Positions 767 through 27,589 of a stretch of DNA of 32,000 nucleotides are shown here, piece by piece. How positions within the stretch are numbered: the stretch's first letter is position 1; every line of letters starts with the position of its first letter. The DNA is from Candidatus Aminicenantes bacterium UBA6072 (GTDB lineage: Bacteria; Acidobacteriota; Aminicenantia; UBA2199), in NCBI GenBank assembly GCA_002436105.1, contig DIXU01000004.1:40166-72165 (forward strand). Direction: 5' to 3'. The notes beneath the pieces are model-generated. The model saw only the letters and a program-made list of their open reading frames with translations, was not told the origin of the DNA and searched no databases. The translations under genes were made by a program, and so were the position numbers.

Positions 767-3376
767 ATGGCGAACTACAAAGGCAGGGACCTGAAGATCT
801 ACGCCTCGGACGAATCGCTGGCCGGGGACGAAAGAAATTACCGCAATGTCTTTGACGTGTGCGAGGTGTCGTTCATCTGGGCCGAATTCTCGTTCTATAA
901 CAAGCTGGTTGACGAGAAGAACTGGCGCATCAAATGCCATCTGCGGGTCATTGACAGGCAAAACAAAGTGGTCTGCGACCTGGATGCCAGCCAGGAAGTC
1001 CTCCTTGGAGAAGCGCTGAAAATCATCCGCGTGAAATGGGGGGCTGAACAGGAGAGCGCCTTCTGGGGAGAGGGCGAATACCGCTGGGAAGCCTGGGTGG
1101 ACGATGAATTGGTCTTTCACAGGACGTTCTATATCACGGATCAAGGGGCGGTCCTGCCCGGACACAACCCCTATTTCACGATCAATTCCCTCCGCTTATT
1201 TGAAGGCCCTTCCCTGATACTGGAACCTGATTCCCGGAACTATGCGAATCAATTCCCCTGTGACCAGGCGCGCTTCATCTGGCTGGAGTTGAAGGCGGAG
1301 AACCGGCTGGTGAATGAGCCGCATGATTGGCCCTGCGAGATCTTCGTCAGCCTGTTCGGCCCCACCATGCGGTTGAAAAGCCGGATCCGCAAGCTGTTTC
1401 TCGTCGGCCGAAACGAAGCGCAGTTCAGTGTCATCCTGGGCTGGGGCGCTGATGAAGCCGGCAGCTGGAAGGAAGGGGACTATCGCATCGAGGTGCATTT
1501 TATGGACCTGTTGCTGGCCAATATGAAATTTTCGATCACCGCCCCCGCGGACGGCGAAAAGGATGAGGAAGGCGTCAATGCCAACAAAAGGCTTACGTTC
1601 ATCTTCACCAAGGACCCGAAGCCGCTCAGGCCAGCGGAGGAAAAAGCCCCTTGCCCCGAGGATGTCCTGGACGGACTGAATGCCCTGATCAGCCTGGACG
1701 CGATCAAATCCCGGGTAACCGATTTCATTCAATACGTGCAATTCGTCAAGCTGAGGAAGGAGAAGGGGCTCCAGGAGGCGGACAGGATCAACCTGAACGC
1801 GATCTTCACCGGCAATCCCGGGACCGGGAAAACCATCGTCGCCAAGCAGCTGGGCGGTATCTTCAAGCGCATCGGGCTGCTGCCAGGCGGGCACCTGATC
1901 CAAGCCGACCGCTCCGACCTGGTCGGCGAGTACATCGGCCAAACCGCTCCCAGGACCAAGGCCCTGATCCAGAAGGCCCTGGGCGGCGTGCTGTTCATCG
2001 ACGAGGCCTACTCCCTGCAGCGCAGGGACGACGATGCCCGCGATTACGGCAGGGAGGTGATCGAGATCCTCCTCAAGCAGATCTCGGAGAACGAAGGGGA
2101 GCTGGCCGTCATCCTGGCCGGATATCCCCAGGAAATGGAAATCTTCATGAACTGCAACCCGGGGCTCAAGTCGCGTTTCGGCATGCATTTCGAGTTTCCC
2201 GACTATACCCCCCAGGAGCTCCGGCAGATCGCGGAGCTGGCGGCCAAAAAGCGGGGCATCGAGTTTTCCCCGCCGGCGGCCGAGCAGTTGTACAGGAAAC
2301 TGGTGGAGGCCTACCGCAACCGCGACCGCACCTTCGGCAACGCCCGCTTCGCCATCTCGCTGGTCGACGAGTCCAAGATCAACATGGCCCTGCGCCTGAT
2401 GCAGTTGCCCGATCGCCGGGACCTCGGCCGGGAAGCGTTGTCGCGGATCGAAGCCCCGGATGTGGAGAACATCCGCCTGAAGAAGCGCGGCAAGGTCCCC
2501 GACATTCCCGTCGACGAGGCGCTGCTCAAGGACGCCCTCCAGCAGCTGCAGGCCATGGTCGGCCTGGAAGCGATCAAGCACGAGATCGAGGAGCTGGTCA
2601 AGCTGGCTCGCTATTACCGGGAGATCGGCAAGGATATCCGCCGCGTCTTCTCCCTGCACTCGGTGTTCATGGGCAATCCCGGCACCGGCAAGACCACCGT
2701 GGCCCGCCTGATGGCCGACGTCTACAAGGCGCTGGGCATCCTGGAGCGCGGCCACCTGGTCGAGTGCGAGCGCCGTCAGCTGGTCGCCGGCTACGTCGGT
2801 CAGACCACGGAAAAAACCAACCGCCTGATCGACACCGCCATGGGCGGCGTGCTGTTCATCGACGAAGCCTACGCGCTGTCGCGGCGGGGAGCCGATGATT
2901 TCGGCATGGAGGCCATCGAGACGCTGCTGAAGCGCATGGACGACGACCGCGGCCTGTTCGTGGTCATCGTCGCCGGCTACGTGCAGAACATGAACCGGTT
3001 CATGGAGTCCAACCCGGGGCTGAAATCCCGCTTCGACCGCGTCCTGCATTTTGACGACTACACCGCCGCCGAGCTGAACGAGATCGCCCTGTTCCTGTTC
3101 GACAAGGAGGGCGTTTCCCTCGCCGCGGGGGTAAAGGACCATCTGCGCGGCTATTTCGCCGCCCTGTGCGCCATCGGCGATCCCAACCTGGGCAACGCCC
3201 GCATCGTCCGCCGCGTCTGCGAAAAGGCCGTCCGCAACCACGACCTGCGCCTGGCGGCGCTGCCCGCCAAGTCGCGCAAGTCAAAACAAGCGGGAACCCT
3301 TACCCTGGAGGACGTGCAGGAGTTCAGCGCCGACGACGTGCTTGCCCGGATCGACAATCGTATCGGATTCCGTTGA
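767..3376 (+). CDS. Double-module AAA+ ATPase of the CbbX/SpoVK/EccA type, with a duplicated N-terminal domain of unknown function
   Basis: ATG with AGGA 4 nt upstream and strong GC3 bias. Two Walker A motifs GNPGTGKT, each followed by GGVLFIDEAY (Walker B) and NPGLKSRF. The N-terminal ~270 aa is an internal duplication: FIWAEF..VKWGAE..WGEGEYRWE versus FIWLEL..LGWGADE..WKEGDYRIE. Confidence 0.9.
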   Translation: MANYKGRDLKIYASDESLAGDERNYRNVFDVCEVSFIWAEFSFYNKLVDEKNWRIKCHLRVIDRQNKVVCDLDASQEVLLGEALKIIRVKWGAEQESAFWGEGEYRWEAWVDDELVFHRTFYITDQGAVLPGHNPYFTINSLRLFEGPSLILEPDSRNYANQFPCDQARFIWLELKAENRLVNEPHDWPCEIFVSLFGPTMRLKSRIRKLFLVGRNEAQFSVILGWGADEAGSWKEGDYRIEVHFMDLLLANMKFSITAPADGEKDEEGVNANKRLTFIFTKDPKPLRPAEEKAPCPEDVLDGLNALISLDAIKSRVTDFIQYVQFVKLRKEKGLQEADRINLNAIFTGNPGTGKTIVAKQLGGIFKRIGLLPGGHLIQADRSDLVGEYIGQTAPRTKALIQKALGGVLFIDEAYSLQRRDDDARDYGREVIEILLKQISENEGELAVILAGYPQEMEIFMNCNPGLKSRFGMHFEFPDYTPQELRQIAELAAKKRGIEFSPPAAEQLYRKLVEAYRNRDRTFGNARFAISLVDESKINMALRLMQLPDRRDLGREALSRIEAPDVENIRLKKRGKVPDIPVDEALLKDALQQLQAMVGLEAIKHEIEELVKLARYYREIGKDIRRVFSLHSVFMGNPGTGKTTVARLMADVYKALGILERGHLVECERRQLVAGYVGQTTEKTNRLIDTAMGGVLFIDEAYALSRRGADDFGMEAIETLLKRMDDDRGLFVVIVAGYVQNMNRFMESNPGLKSRFDRVLHFDDYTAAELNEIALFLFDKEGVSLAAGVKDHLRGYFAALCAIGDPNLGNARIVRRVCEKAVRNHDLRLAALPAKSRKSKQAGTLTLEDVQEFSADDVLARIDNRIGFR

Positions 3377-3498
3377 TCGCTCATGTTTGCAAACACATCG
3401 AGTTCTCTGTTGAGTGGAATCGGATGAGATGGAGATCGTTTTGAAATCAGACATCTCCATATAAATCGTTGAAATATGTCTCAAATGGAGGAGGAGCT

Positions 3499-6400
3499 AT
3501 GGATAGACGGCCTGAATCGCCTGGTTTTGATTCTTCAGATAATCGACTAATCCGAGTCTTCGTTTCTTCCACTTTTCGTGACATGCTCGAAGAACGAGAT
3601 AAACTGATGACCCATACCTGGCCGGAGTTACGACGTTTTTGCAAAGAACGGCAAGTAGAACTGGTTGAAGTTGATTTACGCTGGGGGATTTCGGAAAGTC
3701 AGAGCGAACGAAATGAAACACTGAAATTATGCTTAGGTGAAATTCGTGCATGCCGCCCTTTTTTTATCGGATTACTTGGCGAACGTTACGGAGGAGCACC
3801 AGCGGACGCTGCTTTCACTGCCGACCTTAAGGAAGAACACCCATGGTTAATTAAAAATTACGGAAAAAGTTTTACTGAATTTGAAATCCTTTATGGAGTT
3901 CTCAACAATCCCGAAATGGCAGGCCGTGCTTTTTTTTATTTCCGCGATCCAGCTTATGCTAAGGCTCACGGGGTGGATTTCCTTGCTGAGAATACTAATG
4001 CTTCATTAAGGCAATCCGAATTAAAGGACGCCATCCGCGCTGTATGTAAAACGAAAAATATCCCTCTGTACGAAAACTACTCCGATCCGAGCGAGTTAGC
4101 TGCTCTTGTCCTCAATCAACTAAAAATGGCAATCGCCGACTTATTCCCAACAGAAGCCATTCCAGATCCGCTTGCACATGAGGCCCTAAATCACAAAGCA
4201 TTTGCAGAAATTCGTTGCCGTACATATATTGGGTGCCACGAATATTTTGATAAACTCAACAACTATATTAAGGGAAACGATACGCCAATTGTATTGCTGG
4301 GAGATTCAGGAAGTGGCAAATCTGCTTTGTTGGCCAACTGGATTCAGGAATGGTCGAAATCACATCCGAATGATATTATTTTCCAGCATTACATCGGAAG
4401 TACGCCGGATAGTATCGGACATTGGAAACTGATGACCCGATTGATGGCCGAAATAAATAAAATATCTGGGGTTTCCGATGAAATACCACATTCACACGAT
4501 GAAATTCTCTTAGCGTTTCCTGCCTGGTTGGCAAAAGCTCGAAGCAAGGCGGAGCGTGAGGGCTTCCATTTCATTGTCGTGCTAGATGCTCTCAATCAAC
4601 TTGAAGATGTAGACAATGCTAAAAATCTTGGTTGGTTACCATCCCATTCTTTTAAAGGCCCCTTAAAGCTTATAGTATCTACCCTTTCTGGTGACACCCT
4701 TAGAGCTCTGGATTTGAGGCATTGGGATACGCAAACAATTAAACCTCTTTCACCTGATGATCGCCGTAAGATGATTGGCGATTACTTATTACGTTTTGGC
4801 AAAAAAATCGATTCTGCTCGACTTATTCGCATTGCCGACAATCCAGCTACGGCCAATCCTCTTTATTTGAAAATATTTCTTGATGAATTGCGAGTTACAG
4901 GCACCCATGACAGGCTTGACGAACGAATCAACGATTATCTGGCTGCAACGGATATTCCATTATTAATGCAAAAAGTTCTGACACGTTACCAAAGTGACTA
5001 TGAACGGGACTGTCCAGGGCTGGTGAAAGAAGTGCTTGGGCTTATTTGGGCTTCTCGACGCGGGCTTACTGAAGCTGAGATACTGCGTATCCTGCGTCCT
5101 GCCGATTTGCCACAATTGCCGTTGGCATTTTGGTCCCCCCTGCGAGCGGCACTAGAGGAAAGCCTTATCGACAGAGGGGGATACCTGAATTACATTCACG
5201 ATTTCATTCGAATTGCTGTTGAGGTCGCTTTCGTGCCTGATGAGGACAGTAAAAACTCATTTCGCCAAAGGCTGGCGAGCCATTTTGAAGCCCAACCTGA
5301 AAACGAGCGAAATTGTGACGAGTTGCCATGGCTTTTAAAGCAGATGAATGCTCGAACCCGCCTCCGTAGTTGCTTGCTCGAAATAAACCGATTTATTTTT
5401 ATGTTCGCGCGAGATGAAGATGAAATCACGTCGAACTGGGTATGGCTGGGAGAAGTACAAGAGATGGGGAAATCCTATCAAGATGCATTTAAAAAATGGT
5501 CTTTGAGATCTGGGGGAGATAAAGATTCGAATTTCCGAGCTGCTGCCCGCATTAGTCATATTCTTTTCAAGGCAGGTTTAGTTAATGAAGCCGAACCGTT
5601 AATGCGAGAGGCACTCAAGATGTGTCCAAAAGGGGATCCAACTGAATTAACAGATTTGCTCAATGATTTCGCTAGATTGCTCAGCTCGACGAATAGAGTG
5701 GATGAAGCCCAAAAATATATGCGACAAGCGTTGCAAATAGATGAGTCTTTCTTTGGGAAACAGCACCAAAAAGTTGGCCGCGATTTAAATAGTCTCTCAA
5801 TAATGCTGGCTATGGCTCAACGCCCGGATGAAGCTATATCGTATATGCAACAAGCATTGCAAATCGCGGAAACCAATTTGGGAATGAATCATCCCGATGT
5901 AGGAACCGCAGCAAAGAATCTCGGGGTCCTATTACAAAACAATGGAAGACTTGATGAAGCCGAACCACTTTTACGACGAGCTCTTTTTATTTCCGAATCA
6001 AGCCTTGGGAAAGAGGATTCAAGCGTTGCCCAAAAAGCCTTAAGTCTCGGGTTTTTGCTACTGTATACGCAACGTTGGGAAGAAGCTGAATCTCTATTTC
6101 GCAGAGCTCTCTCCATACTTGAGAAGAGCTTCGGGCCGGAGCACCCAGATGTGGCGACGGCCCTAAATAACCTTGCCCAGTTGCTTAATTCAAGTAATCG
6201 ATCTAGCGAGGCGGAACCACTTTTGAAAAGAGCATTGTATATTGCGGAAACTACTTTTGGGAATAGCCATCCTAATGTATCCCTATACCTCTACAATCTC
6301 GCTCTGACTTACCAATTATTGAATCGAATTGACGAAGCTATACCGATGTTTCAAAAAGCATTGCAAATAAGCGAGTCAAACCTAGGTCCTTATCATCCAG

Positions 6401-7041
6401 AAGTGGTAAAAGATCGTAATAGCCTAATGGAGTTGATTGAGGCTGCAGCTCAAGTAAAAGAAAATGAATCTTTTTTGCGCAATGAATTGCATTTTGCCGA
6501 GGAACAATTCGGGAAGGATCATGTCCAAGTAGCGGAAAAACTCAATGAACTCGCCCAGTTTCTTCAAGCCACGAATCACCTGTCTGAAGCTGAAAATCTT
6601 ATGCGCAGGGTTATTTCAATTTTTATAAACTCAACACCAAAGAATCCGGCGAACCTGGTTATCAGTCTCAATAATCTAGCTGGCTTGTTTCAGGCTGGAA
6701 AACGATTACATGAGTCCCAACAGCAATTCCACGAGGCACTGAAAGTTGCTGAGGAGAATTTAGATAAAAATCACCTCGCGACGGCCATCACTCTTAACAA
6801 CCTTGCGATGTTACTTAAAACCGATGGACGACCGAAAGAAGCTCAACCATTTATGTGTAGAGTTATAGAAATATTTGAAAAAAATGCAAAAATTAATGGT
6901 CAATTGCATCCAAACTTCCAGGCAATTGTAAAAAACTATATTGAAATTCTGGAGTCGATTCAATGGAATCAATATCAAATCAGTTCACATTTAAATAAAA
7001 TAGCTCCCGACTATCGTTGGGACGACAAGTTTTGGAATTAA
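3499..7041 (+). CDS. DUF4062-like N-terminal domain + NACHT/STAND P-loop NTPase + about 11 kinesin-light-chain-type TPR units (NPHP3-like architecture; candidate Avs/bNACHT-like sensor)
   Basis: I chose ATG 3499 (GGAGGAGGAG at 3487-3496) rather than the TTG at 3469. N-terminus is IRVFVSSTFRDMLEERDKL..DLRWGISE. Walker A is LLGDSGSGKSALLANW and Walker B is FIVVLDALNQLED. The C-terminus repeats the 42-aa pattern EAEPLLRRAL.I.E...G..HPDVA..LNNLA. The gene is visibly AT-richer than both flanks. Confidence 0.9.
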   Translation: MDRRPESPGFDSSDNRLIRVFVSSTFRDMLEERDKLMTHTWPELRRFCKERQVELVEVDLRWGISESQSERNETLKLCLGEIRACRPFFIGLLGERYGGAPADAAFTADLKEEHPWLIKNYGKSFTEFEILYGVLNNPEMAGRAFFYFRDPAYAKAHGVDFLAENTNASLRQSELKDAIRAVCKTKNIPLYENYSDPSELAALVLNQLKMAIADLFPTEAIPDPLAHEALNHKAFAEIRCRTYIGCHEYFDKLNNYIKGNDTPIVLLGDSGSGKSALLANWIQEWSKSHPNDIIFQHYIGSTPDSIGHWKLMTRLMAEINKISGVSDEIPHSHDEILLAFPAWLAKARSKAEREGFHFIVVLDALNQLEDVDNAKNLGWLPSHSFKGPLKLIVSTLSGDTLRALDLRHWDTQTIKPLSPDDRRKMIGDYLLRFGKKIDSARLIRIADNPATANPLYLKIFLDELRVTGTHDRLDERINDYLAATDIPLLMQKVLTRYQSDYERDCPGLVKEVLGLIWASRRGLTEAEILRILRPADLPQLPLAFWSPLRAALEESLIDRGGYLNYIHDFIRIAVEVAFVPDEDSKNSFRQRLASHFEAQPENERNCDELPWLLKQMNARTRLRSCLLEINRFIFMFARDEDEITSNWVWLGEVQEMGKSYQDAFKKWSLRSGGDKDSNFRAAARISHILFKAGLVNEAEPLMREALKMCPKGDPTELTDLLNDFARLLSSTNRVDEAQKYMRQALQIDESFFGKQHQKVGRDLNSLSIMLAMAQRPDEAISYMQQALQIAETNLGMNHPDVGTAAKNLGVLLQNNGRLDEAEPLLRRALFISESSLGKEDSSVAQKALSLGFLLLYTQRWEEAESLFRRALSILEKSFGPEHPDVATALNNLAQLLNSSNRSSEAEPLLKRALYIAETTFGNSHPNVSLYLYNLALTYQLLNRIDEAIPMFQKALQISESNLGPYHPEVVKDRNSLMELIEAAAQVKENESFLRNELHFAEEQFGKDHVQVAEKLNELAQFLQATNHLSEAENLMRRVISIFINSTPKNPANLVISLNNLAGLFQAGKRLHESQQQFHEALKVAEENLDKNHLATAITLNNLAMLLKTDGRPKEAQPFMCRVIEIFEKNAKINGQLHPNFQAIVKNYIEILESIQWNQYQISSHLNKIAPDYRWDDKFWN

Positions 7042-7215
7042 ACTTGATCATAAGGAGAGTGGTGATTCCATCGGCAAACCACTTTGTTACAGATCAAACT
7101 TCAGGTACAAGAAATGCCCATTTTATCATGGGGAGATTGGCAAAAATAGTCGCATCAAGGGAACCCCTTGAAAATTATCTTACTAAACTGGATAATCTGT
7201 CAGGGAAGTCGATTT

Positions 7216-7722
7216 ATGGATTCCGATCCAGAGCAAAATCCGGATAACCAGGCCCCTTTGCATTCGCATGGTCCCAGGTCTCCGCTTACAGGCCCGGAAA
7301 AGATAGGAATCCATCCAATGGGAGCCTCCGATCATGGACCTCGCCATAACGATGAACTCCGGATCGTTAATGGTGACAAAGTCGTGATTGACAAGGATTC
7401 GGGATTGGTTTGGCACCAGTCGGGATCGCTCGATATTTTGCTGAATGAAGAGGCCCTTTATTGGCTGAGGGATCTGAACAAGCGGGGATATGCCGGAGGC
7501 TCCGACTGGCGACTGCCCTCGGTGGATGAAGGGCTGGCGCTGTTGGAATTTACTAGAATGAATGGCGATCTCTACATCGATCCTGTTTTCTCCAGGCGCC
7601 AGGAATGGATCTGGACAAGCGATGGCTTCGCGCCCGAATACTTCTGGGTAATCCGCTTCGCCCTGGCCTGCAAGGCCCCTTACAGTCATATTCATCGCGC
7701 CTTCGTCCGACCCGTGCGTTAG
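7216..7722 (+). CDS. DUF1566 (Lcl C-terminal domain)-like protein
   Basis: ATG 7216 with AGGGAAG 7 nt upstream; the track start TTG 7168 is less likely. Motifs DKDSGLVWHQ, GGSDWRLPSVDEGLALLE and EWIWTSD match my memory of DUF1566. Confidence 0.7.
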   Translation: MDSDPEQNPDNQAPLHSHGPRSPLTGPEKIGIHPMGASDHGPRHNDELRIVNGDKVVIDKDSGLVWHQSGSLDILLNEEALYWLRDLNKRGYAGGSDWRLPSVDEGLALLEFTRMNGDLYIDPVFSRRQEWIWTSDGFAPEYFWVIRFALACKAPYSHIHRAFVRPVR

Positions 7723-7730
7723 GGAAGATC

Positions 7731-8696
7731 ATGACCCGACTGGCCGAGCAGATCCTGGTTTCAGACGTCAGCAAGAAAGCCCTGCAGCTGCTCAACCTGC
7801 CGCCCGTTACCCTTGAAAAAGGCACTCCATATGAAAGGCCGGAAACTCCATATTTTCAGGACGCGAGCGAGCCGTCGCCGGACGCGGTGACGATCTTCGT
7901 TTCCTGTGATCTGCGTTATGGAAGTTTTTATGGTGACTCGGATCACTGGAATCACAGCGAAGTATGCGAAATTCCATCCGTATCCTTCTACACGCTGCTC
8001 GCGGGACTGGAAGCAGGCAAAGCGGCATCAATGGAAGTGACGGCCACGATCGGCGAAATAGACATGGCCTGGGGAGTGGATTGTGCTGACCCCCACGAAA
8101 CGATCACTCATAAACAGGAGCCGATTTTAGTCCATGTCGAGATGTCGGCCGACGAGACAGCCGTGGCCCTCAAACTCCTGCGCCAAGAGAAGAATCTGTA
8201 TGTTCCCTATGCCGCGCTGCAACGGGGCGGAAGCGCTCAATGGTTAGAGTCGCTCAGGGTAGAATTGCCGTCAAAAAACAAGCTCAAGAAACATGATTGG
8301 GTCAATAGAGTGAAAGAGGGGGCGGCGGCCGATTTCATACAAAGCTGCTCGCCGGATTTCAAATTCGATCCCGAAAGTTCAACCATCGAAACAGAGGCGA
8401 AGCGCACGCTGACCTTGTCCGGGTGCGGATGGGACGAGGGCTACGATTTTTATTGCGTTTTCAATGCGTCGAACCTTTTGTCTGCAATTGAAAATTACCT
8501 GGCCAGCGGGCGCATGCAAGACAAGGTTTTGCTTGAAGGTGTCGAGTACTATTGCAACATTGAGCTCAGCGGTGCCGGGGACAACATCAGCCGGGCCCTT
8601 TGGGAAGATCCGAATGTACGGCCGGCGCGAGCCGAGGTTCTGATTGACTTTGCAGGGAAAAAGCTTTTAATGAATATACTCGAGGCCAAGGCGTAA
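7731..8696 (+). CDS. Hypothetical protein, apparently translationally coupled to the DUF1566 gene
   Basis: ATG 7731 lies 8 nt after the upstream stop (7720-7722) and is preceded by the same AGGGAAG Shine-Dalgarno. The track start at 7605 overlaps the previous gene in another frame. I recognised no motif. Confidence 0.65.
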   Translation: MTRLAEQILVSDVSKKALQLLNLPPVTLEKGTPYERPETPYFQDASEPSPDAVTIFVSCDLRYGSFYGDSDHWNHSEVCEIPSVSFYTLLAGLEAGKAASMEVTATIGEIDMAWGVDCADPHETITHKQEPILVHVEMSADETAVALKLLRQEKNLYVPYAALQRGGSAQWLESLRVELPSKNKLKKHDWVNRVKEGAAADFIQSCSPDFKFDPESSTIETEAKRTLTLSGCGWDEGYDFYCVFNASNLLSAIENYLASGRMQDKVLLEGVEYYCNIELSGAGDNISRALWEDPNVRPARAEVLIDFAGKKLLMNILEAKA

Positions 8697-8719: not shown

Positions 8720-9742
8720 TTACGTCAAAAGCTCGGAGATGGAGCGGTTGTGGTTGATGTTGAAGATCACCCGGGCAAAATACTTGGCGACGGATACTTC
8801 AAGGAACCAGGGAAAGCGCTTGGAAAAATCGTTGCCATGATATACGGCATCGGTCGCGATCAAACCGTTCAGATAGCCTTTTCGGTACAACTCGTCCAGT
8901 TTCTGTACCGCTTTGCCGTTGAACAGGGGAAGCGAGCAGGCGAAATATACCTTATTTGCTTTCTCTTCTATCTTCAGGAGCTCGATCGTGGAAACGACCG
9001 TTCCACCTGTATCCACCATGTCGTCGATGAGCAGGACATCCCTGCCATGGACGTCGCCCAGCAGGATCGATTCCGAAACGCAGTTGGGTTTCGTGTAATC
9101 CCTTTTTTTATAAATGAACCCCAATTCGGTTTTGAGCTTCGAAGCATAGTGTTCGGCGCGCGGGGCGCCCCCGGCGTCGGGAGAAAGGACGACCAGGTTT
9201 TTCGTATCGATGTGCTCGACGACATAGTCGATGATGTTCTTGGACGCGTGAAGGTCCTCGAATCGCGCCATCCTGAAAAAACCGGCGATGGCGGAATTGT
9301 GGACGTCGAGCGTTAGGACCTGGGTCGCCTTGCAGTTTTCGATCTCCTCGGCGACCCGGGCCGCCGTGATGCCTTCGCGGGATTTGGCCTTGTCCTGGCG
9401 CGCGTACGGAAAGGTGGGGATGACGACGCTGATGTTTCCGGCTCCGGAGCGCCAGGCCGCGTCGATGGCCGTTTTCAATGCCCTGAGGTTCTGGTCGACC
9501 GAATAGCCGTTGACGGAGTTCTCGACGTCCTGGATGATAAAGATGTCGGTGCCGCGGATGCTGTCCAGCACTTCGGTCTTGATCTCGCTGTTCTCGAAGT
9601 GGGTTTCCCTGGAATCGATGAAATGCACCGCTTCATCGGCCCCTTCCCTTTGGACGATATCGTTGATCTGGAGCAGCACTTTTTCCGCGAACGGTTTCCC
9701 CGACTCGCAGGCCATGATGGCCAGTTCTCCTCTTTTGAACAT
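8720..9742 (-). CDS. prs: Ribose-phosphate pyrophosphokinase (PRPP synthetase), divergent type
   Basis: Motifs VIPTFPYARQDK, LTLDVHN, VVLSPDAGGAPRA and VLLIDDMVDTGGT (PRPP-binding loop). At 340 aa it is slightly longer than E. coli Prs, and it has RQDK instead of RQDR. Confidence 0.88.
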   Translation of the reverse strand: MFKRGELAIMACESGKPFAEKVLLQINDIVQREGADEAVHFIDSRETHFENSEIKTEVLDSIRGTDIFIIQDVENSVNGYSVDQNLRALKTAIDAAWRSGAGNISVVIPTFPYARQDKAKSREGITAARVAEEIENCKATQVLTLDVHNSAIAGFFRMARFEDLHASKNIIDYVVEHIDTKNLVVLSPDAGGAPRAEHYASKLKTELGFIYKKRDYTKPNCVSESILLGDVHGRDVLLIDDMVDTGGTVVSTIELLKIEEKANKVYFACSLPLFNGKAVQKLDELYRKGYLNGLIATDAVYHGNDFSKRFPWFLEVSVAKYFARVIFNINHNRSISELLT

Positions 9743-11001: not shown

Positions 11002-11030
11002 TTGACTGCCCGACTGCATTTCCATAGAAT
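11002..11030 (+). promoter_or_regulatory. Near-consensus sigma70 promoter ending 6 nt before ATG 11037, implying a leaderless or near-leaderless mRNA
   Basis: TTGACT (11002-11007), a 17-nt spacer and TAGAAT (11025-11030). There is no Shine-Dalgarno before ATG 11037. Confidence 0.55.
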
Positions 11031-11036
11031 CGGCTG

Positions 11037-11540
11037 ATGGGCAAATCATTTTATTCTGTCCGCACAGTTCTTTTTTTTCTTGTCTTCGTCCTGCTGACCG
11101 CTCCCATCCACGCCCAACCCCGAAAATTGCCCCCCTTGAATCGGGATTTCTTCCTTTTCATGGCGGGGATCATCCTGGTTTTTCTTATCTATTCGATCAG
11201 AACCCGGAGCATCATCTGGCCGCTATGGACTGGCCTGATCAAGCAATCGCGATGGCTTTCCGCGGCGCATATAGTTCTTTTCCTGTCATGTTTCTTGTTT
11301 GGCGCGAAGATTTTCAGCGGCGGCTCATTTGATTGGCAAATCCCGTTGACGTTATTCGTTTTTGGAGTGATCCTGCTGATTCCGGGAGTGTATTGCCAGT
11401 GGAAGATAGCCCCTGATGAACATTGGAGCAGGGCTTTCCTAAATACACTGTTGTCGCTGGCGATCGGTTTTTTGATTTTCCCCGGATTTGCGCTTGTCTA
11501 TTTCTTGACGCACGCATTGACCGCCTTCCTTCGGGATTGA
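11037..11540 (+). CDS. Integral membrane protein (signal/anchor plus about 4 TM segments), function unknown
   Basis: Hydrophobic N-terminus FFLVFVLLTAPIHA-QP, followed by several 20-aa hydrophobic stretches. Confidence 0.6.
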   Translation: MGKSFYSVRTVLFFLVFVLLTAPIHAQPRKLPPLNRDFFLFMAGIILVFLIYSIRTRSIIWPLWTGLIKQSRWLSAAHIVLFLSCFLFGAKIFSGGSFDWQIPLTLFVFGVILLIPGVYCQWKIAPDEHWSRAFLNTLLSLAIGFLIFPGFALVYFLTHALTAFLRD

Positions 11541-11626: not shown

Positions 11627-14266
11627 ATGGATAAAGTGGGAAAGGGGAGCAAGACCATCGTCGTCACCGGCGATTTCACCATCGACTGGAACATCGCCCG
11701 CATCCGCCGCGACGACATCAGCGGCAACAGCTGGAATCCCAACGACCTCACCCGGGCCTGCTGGCAGCGCGGCGGCGCGGCCCTGCTGGGCGACCTGATC
11801 GAAAACCTGGCTGTGGACCTGAAAGGCAAGGGCCTTGGGGAATTCACGGTCAGGAAAATATCGGATATGCCCAAATTCGCCTGCCCCGCCGATGAGCGCT
11901 TCCACCATTCCTATGCCCAGTGGGCGCTTTTCAACTTCAAGGATAAAGAGGGCGCCGAGCCGCGGGCCTGGAGAGTATCCGAGTTCATCGGCCTCGACCG
12001 CAGCGCTAACGGCTGGGCCGAATTCATTGGCGCGCAGTCCAGGGCTGCCGTTGAGCCCGACCTGATCGTTCTCGACGACGCCGACCTCGGGTTCCGGGAC
12101 CATCCCGAACTTTGGTCGCAATTGCTCAAGAAAAGAAACAATACAACCTGGGTCGTGTTGAAAATGTCGCGGCCCGTGGCCCAGGGAGCGCTGTGGGAGC
12201 ACCTGCACCGCGAGTGGGCCGACCGCCTGATCGTGGTCATGACCGCCAACGACCTGCGACGTACCGAGGTGCAGATCAGCCGCGAGCTCTCCTGGGAGCG
12301 CACGGCCCAGGACCTGGCCTGGGAGCTGGTGCACAACCCCCGGGTCAACGCCCTTTCCGATTGCGCCCGGGTGGTATGCTCGTTCGACACGTCGGGAGCT
12401 TTCCTGCTGCACAAGCGCCGGGGATCGCTTTTTTTCGATCCCCAGGGCATTGAAGGCACCTGGAACGGCGGTTTTCCCGGCGGCATGATCGGCTACAACT
12501 CATGCCTGGCCGCCGCCATCGTGCGCCAGTTGCTCATCTCTCCCAAAAATCCCGATATCCAGAATGGAATTCAATCCGGGATCCAGGCCCAGCGCCGCCT
12601 GCACCAGGAGGGCTATGGGGACCGCACTCAGAAAAAAGCCGAACCGCAGCTGGCTTTCCCCTTGGCAACGGTTGTGTCGGCTTTGGCAGAAGATACGTTA
12701 CCCTGCTCGGTCATCGACGTGCAGGACCCGGTCATGCATTTGAAAAACGTGAAGCCGATGCCTGTGGCGGAAACGGCGGACGGATTCTGGACCATATTGC
12801 ATGACCGCTATGCGCAAACCCTGGAAGAAACCGCCCGGCGCATCGTGCTGGAAGGGCCCGAAACCGTGCTGCGCGACGTGCCATTGGGTAAATTCCGCGG
12901 CCTGCTGACCGCCGACCGCCGGGAGATCGAGAGCTTCCGCGGCCTGCGCTCGCTGGTGGCCGAATACTGCAGCAAGAGCCGGCAGAGCAAGCCCATCTCG
13001 ATCGCGGTCTTCGGCTCCCCGGGCTCGGGAAAGTCCTTCGGCATCAACGAGGTCGCCCTTTCGCTTTTTCCGAAGCTGATTGAGAAGAAGGAGTTCAACG
13101 TCTCGCAGTTCACCTCGGTCGATGACCTGCACAACGCATTGCACCAGGTGCGCGACCTGGGGCTCTCGGGAAAGATCCCGCTGGTATTTTTCGACGAGTT
13201 CGACTCCGCCCTGGAGGGGCAAAGCCTGGGCTGGCTGCGCCATTTCCTGATGCCCATGCAGGACGGGGCTTTTCTGAAGGGACAAATATCCCATCCCCTG
13301 GGCATGGCCATATTCGTCTTTGCCGGCGGCACCAGCGAGAAGCTGGAGGCGTTCGGCAGCCACCTGACGCCCGAGGATTTCCGCAAGGTGAAGGGGCCCG
13401 ATTTCGTCTCCCGCCTCAAGGGATTCGTCAATATCATGGGTCCGAACCCCGTTGCCTCCATGGCCGGCGGAGACCCGCATTATATGCTGCGCCGCGCCAT
13501 TTTGTTACGCTCGAGCATTTCGCGCAATGCCAGGCACATCATCGGCAAGAGCGACGGCAGGGAAACCATGAATATCGACCCCGGCGTGCTCAACGCTTTC
13601 CTGAAGATCAGCCAGTACAAGCATGGCGTGCGGTCCATGGAAGCGATCATGGCCATGAGCCAGCTGGCCGGCAAGAGCGGTTATGAGCGCTCCTGCCTTC
13701 CTTCCGAGGCCCAGCTCGACCTGCATGTCAACGGCCTCGAATTCCTGGCCCTGGTGCAGCAGATCGTCCTTACCCCGGAAATATTGGAAAAACTGGCGGC
13801 CGCTGCCCATGACATCTTCTGCCTGGGGAAAAAGCGCGACGGCTATCGTTTCGGCAGGGAAAAAAGCGAGAAAAAAAAGACCCATCCCTTGCTGATGGCC
13901 TATGACAAGCTCCCGGAGTGGGCCAAGGAAGCCAATCGGACCAATGTGAACACCATCCCGCAGAAACTGGCGGCTGCCGGCTATATCATGATCCCGGCCC
14001 GCAGCAACCAGCCGGCACTGAAGTTCCCCGGGAAAGATCTGGAAAAACTCGCGCAGCTGGAGCACGAATTATGGATGGCGGCGAAGCTCGCCGCCGGATT
14101 CAAAAAGGGAAAGCCCACGGCCGCCGATCCCTATCGCAATGAATACCTGGTGGATTGGAATAGACTGACCGACAGGATCAGGCAGATCGATCGCGACCTG
14201 GTCAAGGGCATCCCGCAGATCCTGGCCCGTGCCGGCTATGCCATCGAAAAGCTGAAGCAAGAATAG
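11627..14266 (+). CDS. Large multidomain protein: N-terminal ~340 aa (possibly a degenerate ribokinase/PfkB-like fold), P-loop AAA-type ATPase, two C-terminal RyR domains
   Basis: Strong RBS and strong GC3 bias. Walker A is IAVFGSPGSGKSFG, Walker B is PLVFFDEFDSA, a sensor-like IFVFAGGTS follows, then GPDFVSRLKG. RyR-like repeats are KKRDGYRFGREKSEKKKTHPLLMAYDKLPEWAKEANRTNVNTIPQKLAAAGY and ELWMAAKLAAGFKKGK...NEYLVDWNRLTDRIRQIDRDLVKGIPQILARAGY. N-terminal hints are IVVTGDFTIDW, GGAALLGDL and FPGGMIGYNSCLAAAIV. Confidence 0.88.
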   Translation: MDKVGKGSKTIVVTGDFTIDWNIARIRRDDISGNSWNPNDLTRACWQRGGAALLGDLIENLAVDLKGKGLGEFTVRKISDMPKFACPADERFHHSYAQWALFNFKDKEGAEPRAWRVSEFIGLDRSANGWAEFIGAQSRAAVEPDLIVLDDADLGFRDHPELWSQLLKKRNNTTWVVLKMSRPVAQGALWEHLHREWADRLIVVMTANDLRRTEVQISRELSWERTAQDLAWELVHNPRVNALSDCARVVCSFDTSGAFLLHKRRGSLFFDPQGIEGTWNGGFPGGMIGYNSCLAAAIVRQLLISPKNPDIQNGIQSGIQAQRRLHQEGYGDRTQKKAEPQLAFPLATVVSALAEDTLPCSVIDVQDPVMHLKNVKPMPVAETADGFWTILHDRYAQTLEETARRIVLEGPETVLRDVPLGKFRGLLTADRREIESFRGLRSLVAEYCSKSRQSKPISIAVFGSPGSGKSFGINEVALSLFPKLIEKKEFNVSQFTSVDDLHNALHQVRDLGLSGKIPLVFFDEFDSALEGQSLGWLRHFLMPMQDGAFLKGQISHPLGMAIFVFAGGTSEKLEAFGSHLTPEDFRKVKGPDFVSRLKGFVNIMGPNPVASMAGGDPHYMLRRAILLRSSISRNARHIIGKSDGRETMNIDPGVLNAFLKISQYKHGVRSMEAIMAMSQLAGKSGYERSCLPSEAQLDLHVNGLEFLALVQQIVLTPEILEKLAAAAHDIFCLGKKRDGYRFGREKSEKKKTHPLLMAYDKLPEWAKEANRTNVNTIPQKLAAAGYIMIPARSNQPALKFPGKDLEKLAQLEHELWMAAKLAAGFKKGKPTAADPYRNEYLVDWNRLTDRIRQIDRDLVKGIPQILARAGYAIEKLKQE

Positions 14267-14275
14267 GGAGCAGGA

Positions 14276-15913
14276 TTGCCAATCGCCGACATCCCATTCC
14301 GGTTGCGCATCGGCATTACCGGCCACCGGACCATCAATGATCCCGAAACGGTTTCGCGGCAGATCAGGGATTTCCTGCATGAGCGGATATGGGAATTGTT
14401 CGATCCGCCGGCAGGGAGAAAAAAATCCGGCACGCGCCTCGCTTTCACCCTGCTGAGCCCCCTGGCGGAAGGTGCCGATCGTCTGGCCGCCGCCGAGATC
14501 CTCAAGATCGCCGATTCCGAAATTGAAGCGGTTTTGCCCATGGCCGCGGGCGACTATGAGCGCGATTTTGCCACGTCCGAGTCCCGGGCCGAATTCCATG
14601 ATCTGCTCAGCCGGGCCGGCAGAACGATCGTGCTGAAAGAAACTGCCTCCGACAACACCCTGGACGAGGTGCGCAGAAAAGCATACGAGGCGGCCGGCCG
14701 ATATGTCGTCGACCATTGTGACCTGCTCATCGCCGTGTGGGACGGCATGCCGGCCCGGGGCAGGGGAGGCACGGCCGAGATCGTCGCCTATGCCCGGGGA
14801 AAAAAGCTGCCGCTGATCGTCGTTTCTTCGCTTGATCCTTATGACATAACACTTGAAAAGGGATCGGGGCTGAACGGTCAGGCCTATATCCGGCTGGGGG
14901 TTTTCAATTCATTTGCCATCGCCGCCAATGTCCGGGATGCGTATGTCGACAATATGCACCGGGACCTGTTCGCCAATCCCGATGGTGAACGGCTGGACGG
15001 GGCGATAAGAGAACGCATCCGTTCCGGGCTGCTGCCCTGGTATGTGCGGGCTTCTTCGATCGCCAAGCGCAGCCAGAAAAACTACCTGCGGGCCGGGCTG
15101 CTGGTCTATTCCCTTTCGCCGCTGGCGGTGGCGGCGGTGGCCCTGGCCATTCTCATGCCCAAGTGGGCATCGCCGGCCTTTGTCGTCGAATTCATCCTGC
15201 TGGGGATTATCCTGTTGGTCATCGTGTCATCGGACAGGCGCAGAACCCATCAGAACTGGATCGAGGCCCGCTTTCTGGCCGAACGCATCCGCTCGGCGAT
15301 CTTTCTGACGGCCGGCGGCGTCCAGGCTTCCTGCCTGGTGCACATTCACGCCCTGAGGCCGCAATTGGAAGCCGGGGCGTGGACCATCCAGGCTTTCGAT
15401 GAAATCATGAGACGCATGGGGCCGATTGAATGCTGTGACCAAGCCGGCTGTGATCTCGGCATCGCCTACGTGCGCCGCCACTGGCTGCAGGATCAAATTC
15501 ATTTCCATGTCTCCAAGGCCCAAAGATCGCAAAAGGCCGGTCATCGCCTGGAGAGAGCCGGCTGGCTGGTCTTTATGACCGCTTTTTTTATTGCGGCGTG
15601 GCATCTGATCGAACTGTTTCTTGGTCATCCGGAGATTTTGGCCTGGCTCGGGAAACCTCTTGTTTTTCTCGCTGTTGTGCTGCCGGCCATCGGCGCCACC
15701 CTGGGCGGCATCCGCGGCCACCGCGAATATTCCCGCCTGGCCAAACGCAGCCAGTACATGCAGGCCGTGTTGTCCGACATGGACAGTCGCCTGGCGAACA
15801 TTACCCAGGCCAAGGAGCTGACCGCCCTCCTGCAGGAAACCGAACAGCTGATGCTGCAGGATACCCAGGAGTGGCTGATGCTGATGAAGTTCGCCAAGGT
15901 GGAGGCAATATAA
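14276..15913 (+). CDS. SLOG domain (YpsA/DprA/LOG-like Rossmannoid) fused to a C-terminal multi-TM SLATT-like domain
   Basis: The frame opens at 14267. There is no in-frame ATG before aa ~88, so the start is TTG 14276 (GGGAG at 14266-14270), 9 nt after the upstream stop. SLOG motifs are RIGITGHR, LSPLAEGADRLAAAE and LLIAVWDG..ARGRGGTAEIVAYARGKKLPLIVV. The C-terminal half has hydrophobic helices LLVYSLSPLAVAAVALAIL, FVVEFILLGIILLVIV, WLVFMTAFFIAAWHLIELF and LVFLAVVLPAIGATLGGI, followed by a charged tail. Confidence 0.85.
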   Translation: MPIADIPFRLRIGITGHRTINDPETVSRQIRDFLHERIWELFDPPAGRKKSGTRLAFTLLSPLAEGADRLAAAEILKIADSEIEAVLPMAAGDYERDFATSESRAEFHDLLSRAGRTIVLKETASDNTLDEVRRKAYEAAGRYVVDHCDLLIAVWDGMPARGRGGTAEIVAYARGKKLPLIVVSSLDPYDITLEKGSGLNGQAYIRLGVFNSFAIAANVRDAYVDNMHRDLFANPDGERLDGAIRERIRSGLLPWYVRASSIAKRSQKNYLRAGLLVYSLSPLAVAAVALAILMPKWASPAFVVEFILLGIILLVIVSSDRRRTHQNWIEARFLAERIRSAIFLTAGGVQASCLVHIHALRPQLEAGAWTIQAFDEIMRRMGPIECCDQAGCDLGIAYVRRHWLQDQIHFHVSKAQRSQKAGHRLERAGWLVFMTAFFIAAWHLIELFLGHPEILAWLGKPLVFLAVVLPAIGATLGGIRGHREYSRLAKRSQYMQAVLSDMDSRLANITQAKELTALLQETEQLMLQDTQEWLMLMKFAKVEAI

Positions 15914-15964
15914 TCAGATTATTCTTATTGATATCTCCAAAGATCGATCTTGAAAGGAGAGGAG

Positions 15965-23422: not shown

Positions 23423-24646
23423 ATGGCGTTCACCGTCCCTGAAGCATTCGAGCCCGCTCCCACCGCCACCATCATTCACGCCTACAACAGCGAGGGCATC
23501 ACCCTGCAGGCGCTCAGCGACGACGACATCTGGACGGTGATCAAGTCCTCGGGGGCCAACCTGATCGGCAAGCCCAGCATGCAGCCGCGCGTCCAGGTCA
23601 TGGACCGCTACAGCCCGGAGCGCGACATCCATATCAGCCAGGTCGAGATGTCGCTGGCCATCGAGGAGTCGCACGCCAGTTATTTCTGGGAGCGGCAGGT
23701 CTCAGGAAAGAAATCGTTCGAAATGGCCAGCATGGAGGTCAACACCTGCGGCGACTCGCTGAGCCCCAAGGTCCTGGGCACCTTTCTCGACCTCTGCGAC
23801 TATCCCGAGTTCGTTTCCTTCATCTACTTCGCCCCCACGCCGCTGCTCAAGGAACAGAAGATATCCGACCGGGAATCGCTGCGCAAGCAATGCTTCAAGA
23901 CCCCGGTCGACTGCTGGTCGCGCTACATCATCGACATCCAGGCTCCCATCGAGATCCAGGAAGGCAAGCTGTTCATCGCCCACCTGCACCGCAAGGATGT
24001 GACCCGCATCGTGAAGCGCCTGCGCGAGGAAGTCATCGAGAGGTATTCCCAGCACTCCATCAAGCTGGCCCGCAGCGACCGCAAGCTGAAGCTGATGGTC
24101 AATTCGCAGCAGGAGGAGTACCTGGCCTGCGCCTTCTACGATTGCGACCAGAAGTTCGTCAATTCCCTCTGCAACCCGCGTATCCGCGAGGACGAGGCCC
24201 TCTACCTGCTGGAAGACTGCTTCGAAGACGTGCTGCTCTCCACCGACACGCCCTTCGTTTTCGAGCATGATTTCGATCCCCCCGGCTACACCAGCGTTTT
24301 CCTGACCGGGGGCACCGGCTACATCGCCCTGCACGTCACCCCCAACCCCATCGGCCAGACAAAAAACTTCGTCGAATTCTGCGCCTACATCCATCCCAGC
24401 ATGTGGGTCTTCGAACGCGAGTCGCTGGTGCACGTCATGTGGCCGGTCCTGAAGCTGTTCCAGCCCGGAAAGGCCGAGATCCACTACCGTCTCTCCTCGC
24501 GCAACATCATGCGCGGCCGGAATATCCACCAGAAATTCATCCGCAAGCGGCTGATCGGCCTGGGCTATACCTACGAGGACCTGGTCTCGTTCTATGACGA
24601 ATACTTCGGCCGCACGTTCTTCCACCTGAACATCGAGAAAAAATAG
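23423..24646 (+). CDS. Eukaryote-type (class 2) S-adenosylmethionine decarboxylase-like pyruvoyl-enzyme fold protein
   Basis: From my memory of human AdoMetDC: LAIEESHASYF vs YVLSESSMFV (autoprocessing E-S site), EVNTCGDS vs ILKTCGTT, FDPPGYTS vs FNPCGYSM, GYIALHVTPNP vs TYWTIHITPEP, LFQPGK vs VFKPGK. Strong GC3 bias supports that it is coding. Confidence 0.6.
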   Translation: MAFTVPEAFEPAPTATIIHAYNSEGITLQALSDDDIWTVIKSSGANLIGKPSMQPRVQVMDRYSPERDIHISQVEMSLAIEESHASYFWERQVSGKKSFEMASMEVNTCGDSLSPKVLGTFLDLCDYPEFVSFIYFAPTPLLKEQKISDRESLRKQCFKTPVDCWSRYIIDIQAPIEIQEGKLFIAHLHRKDVTRIVKRLREEVIERYSQHSIKLARSDRKLKLMVNSQQEEYLACAFYDCDQKFVNSLCNPRIREDEALYLLEDCFEDVLLSTDTPFVFEHDFDPPGYTSVFLTGGTGYIALHVTPNPIGQTKNFVEFCAYIHPSMWVFERESLVHVMWPVLKLFQPGKAEIHYRLSSRNIMRGRNIHQKFIRKRLIGLGYTYEDLVSFYDEYFGRTFFHLNIEKK

Positions 24647-24739
24647 CCGTCAGGATTTCCCCGATTGCGCCGTTGCCCGGCCTGGCATATCCTTGGGCCG
24701 GGAGAGCGGGACGGGATCATTTCCCGGCCCGGAAAAACC

Positions 24740-27482: not shown

Positions 27483-27546
27483 TCGGCCTCCTTGACTCGA
27501 TGGTTCATGGTAGCCCGCAGGCGGCCGGGAGTCAAGGCGGCGCGGC

Positions 27547-27575
27547 TTGTCAAGACACGGACATTGGGATATCAT
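27547..27575 (+). promoter_or_regulatory. Sigma70-type promoter of tlyA-nadK
   Basis: TTGTCA (27547-27552), a 17-nt spacer and TATCAT (27570-27575), 14 nt before ATG 27590. Confidence 0.5.
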
Positions 27576-27589
27576 TGCCGGCAAGCAGC

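Follow-up and report, generated by a model that had tools for sequence, protein, structure and literature searches.

What does a bacterial protein do that carries a ribokinase-like fold, an AAA+ ATPase and two RyR repeats, the domain named after the animal ryanodine receptor, in a single chain of 879 residues? The gene lies on a stretch of 32,000 nucleotides of contig DIXU01000004.1 of Candidatus Aminicenantes bacterium UBA6072 (assembly GCA_002436105.1), which we refer to as the window, and it is followed by a gene for a protein with a SLOG domain and SLATT-like membrane modules. We tentatively propose, with a confidence somewhat short of even, that the 879-residue protein is a signal-gated AAA+ switch, which senses a nucleotide derived from nicotinamide adenine dinucleotide (NAD) and acts together with its SLOG-SLATT partner in a bacterial immune module.

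An earlier description made from the DNA letters, here called the sequence-only reading, had pointed to an unusual architecture composed of a degenerate sugar or nucleoside kinase-like N-terminal domain, a P-loop ATPase and tandem RyR domains. All three parts are present (Table 1), and public gene calls on eight metagenome contigs give the identical protein. The three-part layout is therefore real, but it is not rare, being shared by a large and conserved family.

Tandem RyR repeats

The Pfam RyR family (Pfam ID PF02026) matches the C-terminal region in two stretches, with 76.3 bits against a gathering score of 27.4. The two repeats align with each other without a gap (aa 720 to 788 with aa 805 to 873; 30% identity over 69 residues, BLASTP E=7e-10), which bears out the tandem arrangement, and both end in AGY. 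A phmmer search against the PDB sequences returns only the Repeat12 (R12) structures of ryanodine receptors and small bacterial proteins named “putative ryanodine receptor,” with E values down to 1.7e-14. The same region gave one weak match in a tblastn search of 50,697 phage genomes.

The sequence-only reading had stated that bacterial RyR domains are without an established function, which is now out of date. The PF02026 protein gp78 of mycobacteriophage DyoEdafos, named RyDEP, was described to hydrolyse 2'cADPR and 3'cADPR, isomers of cyclic ADP-ribose (cADPR), to ADP-ribose (ADPR) (preprint, May 2026; PMC13232231), and six of eight other phage RyDEP homologues bind 2'/3'cADPR tightly with no cleavage (PMC13232231). 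The ligand is contacted by H75, W78, H100, and D117, with His75 and Asp117 forming the catalytic dyad, and the animal R12 domain binds adenine nucleotides and dantrolene (PMC13232231). In the phage genome, RyDEP is located between a phosphoribosyl pyrophosphate (PRPP)-transferase-like gene and a nicotinate ribosyltransferase gene (NARP1), that is, among NAD-resynthesis genes.

We placed the ligand contacts of RyDEP gp78 (GenBank MN234187) on both repeats, using the ungapped spacing that RyDEP, bacterial RyR proteins, and both repeats have in common. On this spacing, H75, W78, H100, and D117 correspond to H728, F731, H753, and N770 in repeat 1 and to H813, W816, N838, and D855 in repeat 2. H813, W816, D855, and R856 are invariant in the homologues, and position 838 is either Asn or His, the latter in 53 of 82 genome homologues. 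The two proteins share the family, the NAD/ADPR signalling context, and, in repeat 2, the ligand motif His-x-x-Trp ... (His/Asn) ... Asp-Arg. They differ in that the 879-residue protein is host-encoded, has two repeats per chain where RyDEP forms a homodimer, is fused to an AAA+ and a PfkB-fold domain, and has an Asn at the Asp position of repeat 1. The R12 domain of the animal ryanodine receptor is likewise a homologous tandem RyR-repeat module, but in the animal protein it serves as a regulatory domain at the periphery of a Ca2+ channel of 5,000 residues, whereas the module described here forms the C-terminus of a soluble ATPase.

The SLOG partner

The SLOG neighbour named by the sequence-only reading is confirmed by structure comparison. 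The AlphaFold2 (AF2) model of its N-terminal domain, which was built with database homologues, has a predicted local distance difference test score (pLDDT) of 88.8, and the best Foldseek match is Bacillus subtilis YpsA (PDB ID 2nx2; E=1.2e-8, template modelling [TM] scores 0.61/0.70), followed by DprA, the SLOG domain of ThsA bound to 3'cADPR, and LOG. Pfam matches of this domain (YpsA, YAcAr, and Nuc_deoxyrib_tr) stay below the threshold, and a profile search of the PDB yields chance-level matches only. More than 1,000 proteins, mostly stand-alone and about 200 residues long, belong to the SLOG-domain family, which is marked by the conserved motifs GxTGHR, LAEGADR, and WDG..GGT. SLOG domains of the YpsA clade have been tied to NAD/ADPR and to conflict systems by comparative genomics (PMC6459960). 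The C-terminal half of the partner has four hydrophobic helices arranged in two pairs, and its residues 250 to 540 show sub-threshold similarity to SLATT_3 (22.1 bits, cut-off 26.3) and to the NCBIfam family SLATT_1 (30.9 bits, cut-off 41).

The association of the two genes is found well beyond the window. Among 85 related loci collected from genomes, a SLOG homologue is encoded within 8 kb in 40, and in 29 it occupies the gene position +1. At seven or more loci, the open reading frames (ORFs) of the RyR-AAA and SLOG proteins have 4 nt in common. Furthermore, 7 of the 150 best representatives of the N-terminal domain family (1,050 to 1,193 aa) are single chains of the order PfkB-fold-AAA-RyR-RyR-SLOG, with the SLOG domain at the C-terminus, and one 355-residue protein is composed of RyR and SLOG. 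Gene order, translational coupling, and fusion argue that the RyR-AAA and SLOG proteins work as one unit.

TIR and DUF4062 proteins in the gene neighbourhood

The neighbourhoods of the 85 loci were annotated with hidden Markov models built from proteins of the window and of the loci themselves, and the result was then checked against Pfam; all 48 segments named TIR are TIR_2, and 35 of the 36 segments named DUF4062 are DUF4062. At least one TIR or DUF4062 gene is present in 57 of the 85 loci (TIR_2 in 35), and 69 contain at least one of TIR, DUF4062, SLOG, SLATT, or a second RyR protein. The TIR and DUF4062 genes cluster between gene ranks -3 and +5, most of them on the same strand, with 23 TIR and 12 DUF4062 genes among the 153 genes at rank ±1 and a single one among the 169 genes at rank 6 or beyond. 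Most of them encode long proteins of the STAND class, with NACHT or NB-ARC followed by TPR or WD40 repeats. DUF4062 was described as a TIR-like NADase yielding ADPR and nicotinamide (preprint 10.64898/2026.05.01.722283).

Two DUF4062 proteins are encoded in the window, one on either side of the RyR-AAA and SLOG genes. The downstream DUF4062-NACHT-WD40 protein, whose DUF4062 domain is taken from the precomputed annotation of public contigs and is missing from our own scan as far as its Pfam families are listed (25 of 60), is a candidate sensor and signal producer. Downstream of this gene there is also a Macro-domain gene, the product of which is of an ADP-ribose binding or hydrolysing type and extends the NAD/ADPR theme.

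RyR repeats are found on further proteins of the same neighbourhoods. Fourteen loci encode, mostly as the third gene behind the RyR-AAA and SLOG genes, a protein of about 600 residues that combines two N-terminal transmembrane helices (2TM) with a TrkA_N/RCK domain and tandem RyR repeats of its own. A short re-entrant-like segment lies between the two helices, and these proteins look like ligand-gated, ion-channel-like proteins with the same sensor as animal ryanodine receptors. In an Acidobacteriota metagenome-assembled genome (MAG), a family member is accompanied by a RelA/SpoT-RyR protein, a TrkA_N-RyR protein, a NUDIX hydrolase, a small TIR protein, and an inositol-phosphatase-like gene, which brings three different RyR-domain proteins together in one cluster. 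SLATT and channel effectors occur in the same operons as the RyR-AAA family. RyR is joined to different outputs (AAA/PfkB-fold, 2TM-TrkA_N, RelA/SpoT, and SLOG) in the same neighbourhoods, as would be expected of a sensor domain.

A ribokinase fold without the kinase signature

The N-terminal domain has a ribokinase/PfkB fold, as judged from its structure model. The AF2 model of residues 1 to 400, for which an alignment of 22 homologues served as input, has a mean pLDDT of 83.4 and a predicted TM score of 0.86, with the pLDDT dropping to 42 to 52 over residues 371 to 400. The best 50 Foldseek matches in the PDB are all kinases of the ribokinase/PfkB family, including LacC, PfkB, HldA, nucleoside kinase, ketohexokinase, and ribokinase (best match E=3.7e-10, probability 1.00, TM scores 0.46/0.56; overall 0.46 to 0.58). 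By contrast, sequence methods see no such likeness: Pfam (E<=0.1) and NCBIfam scans of the domain gave no match, a search of the PDB sequences with the profile of the 22 homologues found nothing, and the hhalign comparison with Escherichia coli RbsK reached a probability of 0.06. The resemblance proposed by eye in the sequence-only reading is therefore right at the level of the fold and visible by structure comparison alone.

The active site was mapped onto RbsK by the order of motifs and secondary structure elements rather than by a residue-level superposition. On this basis, D20 stands for the substrate-binding Asp that RbsK has at the end of its strand 1 (D16), and G49-G50 for the GG dipeptide (G41-G42); all three residues are invariant or nearly so in 121 homologues. 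In place of the NXXE motif (N187-E190), the family has (N/D)208-D209-L210-R211, of which D209 and R211 do not vary. In the GAGD region, represented by GGMIGYNS (aa 285 to 292), G289-Y290 stands for RbsK G254-D255, and the residue at the position of the catalytic Asp is a Tyr in 112 and an Asn in 6 of the 121 sequences and never an Asp. The GAGD signature had been noted as lacking, and as far as motif order allows, this holds for the 121 sequences. Canonical kinase activity is unlikely, because the NXXE motif and the GAGD aspartate are absent. The word “degenerate” fits the lost catalytic signature but not the domain as a whole, which has not simply decayed: some 50 positions, D150, D151, R157, D271, E276, and W279 included, do not vary between phyla.

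Compared to PfkB kinases such as LacC (PDB ID 2awd), RbsK, and HldA, the domain has the same fold including the beta-sheet lid, the same order of elements, and counterparts of the Asp for substrate binding and of the GG dipeptide, but it is about 90 residues longer, has no detectable sequence relation to them, carries invariant residues of its own, and differs at both catalytic motifs. We read it as a pseudo-kinase retaining a ribose-type pocket, which may instead be a non-canonical enzyme. It is comparable to PfkB-type pseudo-kinases such as the plant FLN proteins. The ribokinase-fold family that it represents is missing from Pfam and uncatalogued.

The AAA+ module

The Walker A and B motifs read from the sequence, GSPGSGKS and LVFFDEFD, are those of a conserved ATPase core, in which K469, S470, D523, and E524 are invariant in the 121 homologues. 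G463, G466, G468, R596, R622, and R623 are likewise invariant or nearly so, R622 being found in 120 of the sequences. The Pfam AAA family (Pfam ID PF00004) scores 21.0 bits, just below its cut-off of 21.2, and the profile of residues 396 to 705 has the classical-clade AAA proteins as its sole relatives in the PDB, with marginal scores (Mpa/ARC, E=0.004, then Rpt, Vps4, and Cdc48). With these, the module shares the Walker motifs, the motif L-x-x-M-(Q/D)-G before sensor 1 (here MQDG), the Arg finger region (R596 in SRLKG), and a helical lid with the sensor-2 arginines (R622 and R623).

The module departs from the classical clade in its extra insertions and in lacking pore loop 1. In the HMMER alignment, the Mpa segment KFVGE is placed opposite SQ(F/L)xx within a shorter segment, and the aromatic-hydrophobic-Gly pattern of pore loop 1 was not found. 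We therefore downgraded a reading of the protein as an unfoldase. Since the hydrolysis motifs are complete and pore loop 1 is missing, the sequence suggests a nucleotide-driven switch or oligomeriser and not a polypeptide translocase. The flanking regions also differ, being putative ligand-binding domains in place of the substrate-recruiting N-domains of classical AAA proteins.

A putative immune switch and its alternatives

From the domain identities, residue conservation, gene linkage, and fusions described above, we infer a ligand, a direction of signalling, and an output. In the proposed mechanism, neighbouring STAND NTPases with TIR or DUF4062 heads would recognise an invader and split NAD+, yielding ADP-ribose or a messenger of the cyclic-ADPR type. 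The tandem RyR domains would form a pair of R12-like pockets binding this NAD-derived nucleotide, with repeat 2 keeping His-x-x-Trp ... Asp-Arg, and ligand binding would switch the central AAA+ ATPase. The RyR-AAA assembly would act with its obligate YpsA-like SLOG partner. The SLATT-like modules to which SLOG is joined in the window would permeabilise the membrane; the SLOG protein of other genomes stands alone, often beside a channel-like 2TM-RCK-RyR protein. The PfkB-fold pseudo-kinase appears to keep the ribose-binding half of the ribokinase site and not the half for phosphoryl transfer, and its most likely role is to bind a ligand that contains ribose or to mediate dimerisation and contact with the partner. 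The two DUF4062 proteins and the Macro domain of the window support an NAD-type signal, and the 3'cADPR-bound ThsA domain among the structural matches of the partner provides a structural precedent. The sequence-only reading had considered generation or sensing of a phosphorylated nucleoside signal. The nucleotide-signal context fits this idea, but the neighbourhood points to NAD-derived, ADPR-type signals made by the TIR and DUF4062 proteins and not by the protein itself.

Several observations weigh against the proposed switch. The RyDEP mapping depends on the alignment: MAFFT opens a two-residue gap and places D117 opposite E768 and Q853, a shift that leaves the assignment of D117 to D855 insecure. 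The residues of the RyR pocket do not co-vary with the type of producer, TIR or DUF4062. The only activity so far demonstrated for DUF4062 is the hydrolysis of NAD+ to ADPR, not the synthesis of cyclic signals (10.64898/2026.05.01.722283). The decay of the TIR and DUF4062 genes with distance is the sole background control for their linkage, 28 of the 85 loci have neither gene, and in 16 no associated domain occurs within 8 kb. No defence-system model of PADLOC matches the RyR-AAA or SLOG-SLATT proteins. Finally, the many invariant polar residues of the N-terminal domain would suit an enzyme as well and have no role in the model.

The model can be widened to a reading that we hold to be possible but doubtful, in which host-encoded RyR domains of the R12 type are a general receptor class for NAD metabolites derived from TIR and DUF4062 proteins, in the manner of SLOG, CARF, and SAVED. 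They would gate several effectors, namely the AAA+/pseudo-ribokinase with its SLOG-SLATT pore, the 2TM-RCK-RyR channel-like proteins, and RelA/SpoT enzymes.

The conservation of the RyDEP dyad in repeat 2, as given by the ungapped mapping, raises the question of whether the protein ends a signal instead of sensing it. Repeat 2 would then be a glycosidase that linearises cADPR-type messengers, and the PfkB-like domain would bind, or phosphorylate in a non-canonical way, the released ADP-ribose, resetting the pathway or protecting the NAD pool as a host counterpart of phage RyDEP, analogous to the CRISPR ring nucleases. H813 and D855 stand at the dyad positions and the family at large has all four contact residues, with His at position 838 in most genome homologues; the PfkB fold retains the ribose-binding Asp and the GG dipeptide; phage RyDEP sits among NAD-resynthesis genes; and PRPP-synthetase-like and Macro genes occur in the window. 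However, the six RyDEP homologues that bind without cleaving keep the residues (PMC13232231), which are also said to be conserved in the non-enzymatic R12 domains of animals, the PRPP synthetase is found in none of the 86 other loci, and the kinase signature is gone. Such a role also leaves the AAA+ ATPase and the obligate pairing with SLOG unexplained, and we consider it unlikely.

The invariant residues of the N-terminal domain could alternatively belong to an active site. A non-canonical kinase or other enzyme would use D150, D151, R157, D209, R211, D271, and E276 on a ribose-containing substrate to make a nucleotide or nucleoside signal, as in the generation option of the sequence-only reading; the product would be processed or sensed by SLOG, with the RyR repeats as allosteric regulators. 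The domain is very strongly conserved between phyla, has numerous acidic and basic residues that do not vary, and retains counterparts of the substrate-binding Asp and of the GG dipeptide, which is consistent with this, as is the presence of LOG, a SLOG enzyme acting on nucleotides, among the structural matches of the partner. Against it, the catalytic base position is Tyr or Asn and never Asp, the Glu of NXXE is an invariant Arg (in the mapping by secondary structure order), there is no sequence-level relation to any PfkB kinase, and dedicated signal makers, the TIR and DUF4062 proteins, are already encoded nearby. We give this alternative little credence, less than that of a signal terminator.

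A housekeeping or stress-related AAA+ chaperone or regulator with nucleotide-sensing domains, the neighbours of which merely reflect the abundance of STAND, TIR, and DUF4062 genes in large environmental genomes, would account for the 16 loci with none of the associated genes, the lack of a PADLOC match, and the richness of Chloroflexota, Acidobacteriota, and Planctomycetota in STAND genes (Kaur et al. 2020, PMC7159879), but is very improbable given the steep drop of the TIR and DUF4062 genes with gene rank, their strand bias, the SLOG fusions, and the SLATT and channel effectors in the same operons.

Distribution and variants of the family

A word-indexed search found more than 1,321 relatives of the 879-residue protein; among the 120 listed, nearly all are 860 to 940 residues long and 52 to 95% identical over the full length. 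The profile of the N-terminal domain, searched against 1.84 billion representatives, matches 2,103 clusters (50% identity) at E<=1e-3 and 1,609 at E<=1e-10, and at least 571 species-representative genomes carry the family. The hosts include Chloroflexota, Acidobacteriota, Planctomycetota, Actinomycetota, Aminicenantes, deltaproteobacteria, Chlorobi/Ignavibacteria, Gemmatimonadota, and methanogenic archaea. Nearly all of these genomes are MAGs, the one cultured isolate being Maioricimonas sp. JC845 (locus L040). Family members are named “RyR domain-containing protein,” “AAA family ATPase,” or hypothetical protein in the databases.

Two kinds of variants were seen. One homologue (P0042; 1,251 aa) has an additional N-terminal region of about 370 residues with a CHAT (caspase-like protease) domain before the PfkB-fold domain, a fusion of the effector type. 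About 40 of the 150 best representatives of the N-terminal domain (e.g., P0253, P0260, P0275, and P0298; about 700 to 750 aa) have the PfkB-fold and AAA domains and no RyR repeats. Many of these are probably fragments at contig ends, and some may be real variants.

Other genes of the window

The coordinates of the features are collected in Table 1. The DUF4062-NACHT-TPR gene is directly preceded by a gene for an 869-residue protein with two AAA domains, each with an AAA_lid_6 domain (CbbX/EccA-like), which may be a further component of the island. Between the upstream STAND gene and the PRPP-synthetase-like gene lies a gene for a protein with an Lcl_C domain (168 aa in the public call), overlapped by an ORF of 363 residues (321 aa in the public call) with no family match. 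The PRPP-synthetase-like gene itself, with Pribosyltran_N and Pribosyltran domains, lies 2 kb upstream on the opposite strand. It was considered as a conserved component by analogy with the phage NARP1 context and rejected; because it is absent from all 86 related loci, the link is probably incidental.

A 167-residue ORF with five hydrophobic segments ends 86 nt upstream of the RyR-AAA gene; it is not called on the public contigs and has no homologue in the related loci. The best promoter-like match of the region lies ahead of this ORF, in a promoter and terminator scan that stayed at background level. An APH-type phosphotransferase gene is located downstream of the DUF4062-NACHT-WD40 gene.

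The G+C content is 0.41 to 0.46 at positions 4001 to 7000, inside the DUF4062-NACHT-TPR gene, 0.58 to 0.62 at 12001 to 16000, across the RyR-AAA and SLOG genes, and 0.60 to 0.69 at 21000 to 29000, in the right-hand third of the window. These swings suggest a mosaic island that was assembled horizontally.

Table 1. Features of the window and examples from related loci (positions in nucleotides of the window unless a locus is named)
Feature	Coordinates	Strand	Basis
869-aa double-AAA protein	767-3376	+	
DUF4062-NACHT-TPR STAND protein, upstream	3469..7041	+	Pfam DUF4062 44.7 bits, NACHT, TPR
Lcl_C-domain protein	7168-7722	+	
363-aa ORF	7605-8696	+	
PRPP-synthetase-like gene	8720-9742	-	
Best promoter-like match	11002-11030		
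167-aa ORF	11037-11540	+	
Whole ORF, PfkB-fold domain, linker, AAA+ ATPase, and tandem RyR, 879 aa (start ATG at 11627, stop at 14266, 879 codons)	11627..14266	+	ORF list, public gene calls, homologues
N-terminal ribokinase/PfkB-fold domain, aa 1-345	11627..12661	+	AF2 model, Foldseek, conservation
Linker, aa 346-395, partly poorly conserved, low model confidence	12662..12811	+	pLDDT, conservation
AAA+ ATPase module and lid, aa 396-705	12812..13741	+	Pfam AAA, PDB profile matches, invariant catalytic residues
Walker A	13013-13036	+	Motif GSPGSGKS, aa 463-470
Walker B	13181-13204	+	Motif LVFFDEFD, aa 519-526
RyR repeat 1, aa 712-790 (H728, F731, H753, N770, R771)	13760..13996	+	Pfam, PDB matches, repeat-repeat BLASTP, conservation
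RyR repeat 2, aa 797-875 (H813, W816, N838, D855, R856)	14015..14251	+	Pfam, alignments, conservation
Partner gene, 545 aa, SLOG and two SLATT-like 2TM modules, 9 nt downstream	14276..15913	+	AF2/Foldseek, transmembrane scan
YpsA-like SLOG domain, aa 1-200 of partner	14276-14875	+	Foldseek
Two SLATT-like 2TM modules, four predicted transmembrane helices	~15023-15895	+	Sub-threshold SLATT matches, transmembrane scan
DUF4062-NACHT-WD40 STAND protein, 36 nt downstream of partner gene	15950..20701	+	Precomputed Pfam annotation on public contigs
APH-type phosphotransferase	21343-22443	+	
Macro-domain gene	22662-23231	+	
2TM-TrkA_N/RCK-RyR protein, examples	L034:5759-7555, L045:11228-13042, L037:11287-13062		11 more loci
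Cluster with three RyR-domain proteins, Acidobacteriota MAG	L003/L014:1267-7791		

Relation to described systems

The Thoeris system, composed of the TIR producer ThsB and the SLOG-containing effector ThsA, also places TIR-type NAD-cleaving proteins beside a SLOG protein with a toxic output, and its 3'cADPR-bound SLOG domain structurally matches the partner. Several features set the locus apart. The producers are STAND-fused TIR or DUF4062 proteins, with DUF4062 and not ThsB in the window; the SLOG domain is of the YpsA type and occurs either joined to SLATT or on its own; and the additional RyR-AAA-PfkB-fold subunit of about 880 residues has no Thoeris counterpart. The Thoeris models of PADLOC do not match the RyR-AAA or SLOG-SLATT proteins.

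Burroughs et al. are said to have predicted nucleotide-centric conflict systems of the SLOG/SMODS-SLATT type in 2015. These predicted systems have the same coupling of SLOG to a SLATT 2TM module and the same logic, from nucleotide signal to sensor to membrane effector. The difference is the RyR-AAA-PfkB-fold subunit, which was found in no paper by our literature searches, the scope of which did not include the 2015 paper, so that the family is undescribed as far as checked. What is new here is this subunit without a counterpart in described systems, its uncatalogued ribokinase-fold family, and a first candidate role for cellular RyR domains.

Significance

Nucleotide signalling derived from TIR proteins, as in Thoeris, plant TIR-NLRs, and SARM1, is a central theme of immunity, and few receptor domains are known for these signals, for example SLOG and Macro. 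Phage RyR proteins bind and destroy cADPR isomers, which raises the question of the role of the far more numerous cellular RyR proteins. The RyR-AAA family, with at least 1,600 sequence clusters in many phyla and in archaea, is a concrete and abundant receptor candidate, for which the genetic evidence is in place: a SLOG partner that is sometimes fused, adjacent STAND producers with TIR or DUF4062 heads, and SLATT or channel-like outputs in the same operons. Being small and soluble, the fragment with the two RyR repeats lends itself to a direct test of what it binds. If the proposal is true, RyR would join the receptor domains for NAD-derived signals of the TIR type, and the family would connect the R12 domain of the ryanodine receptor to an immune ancestry.

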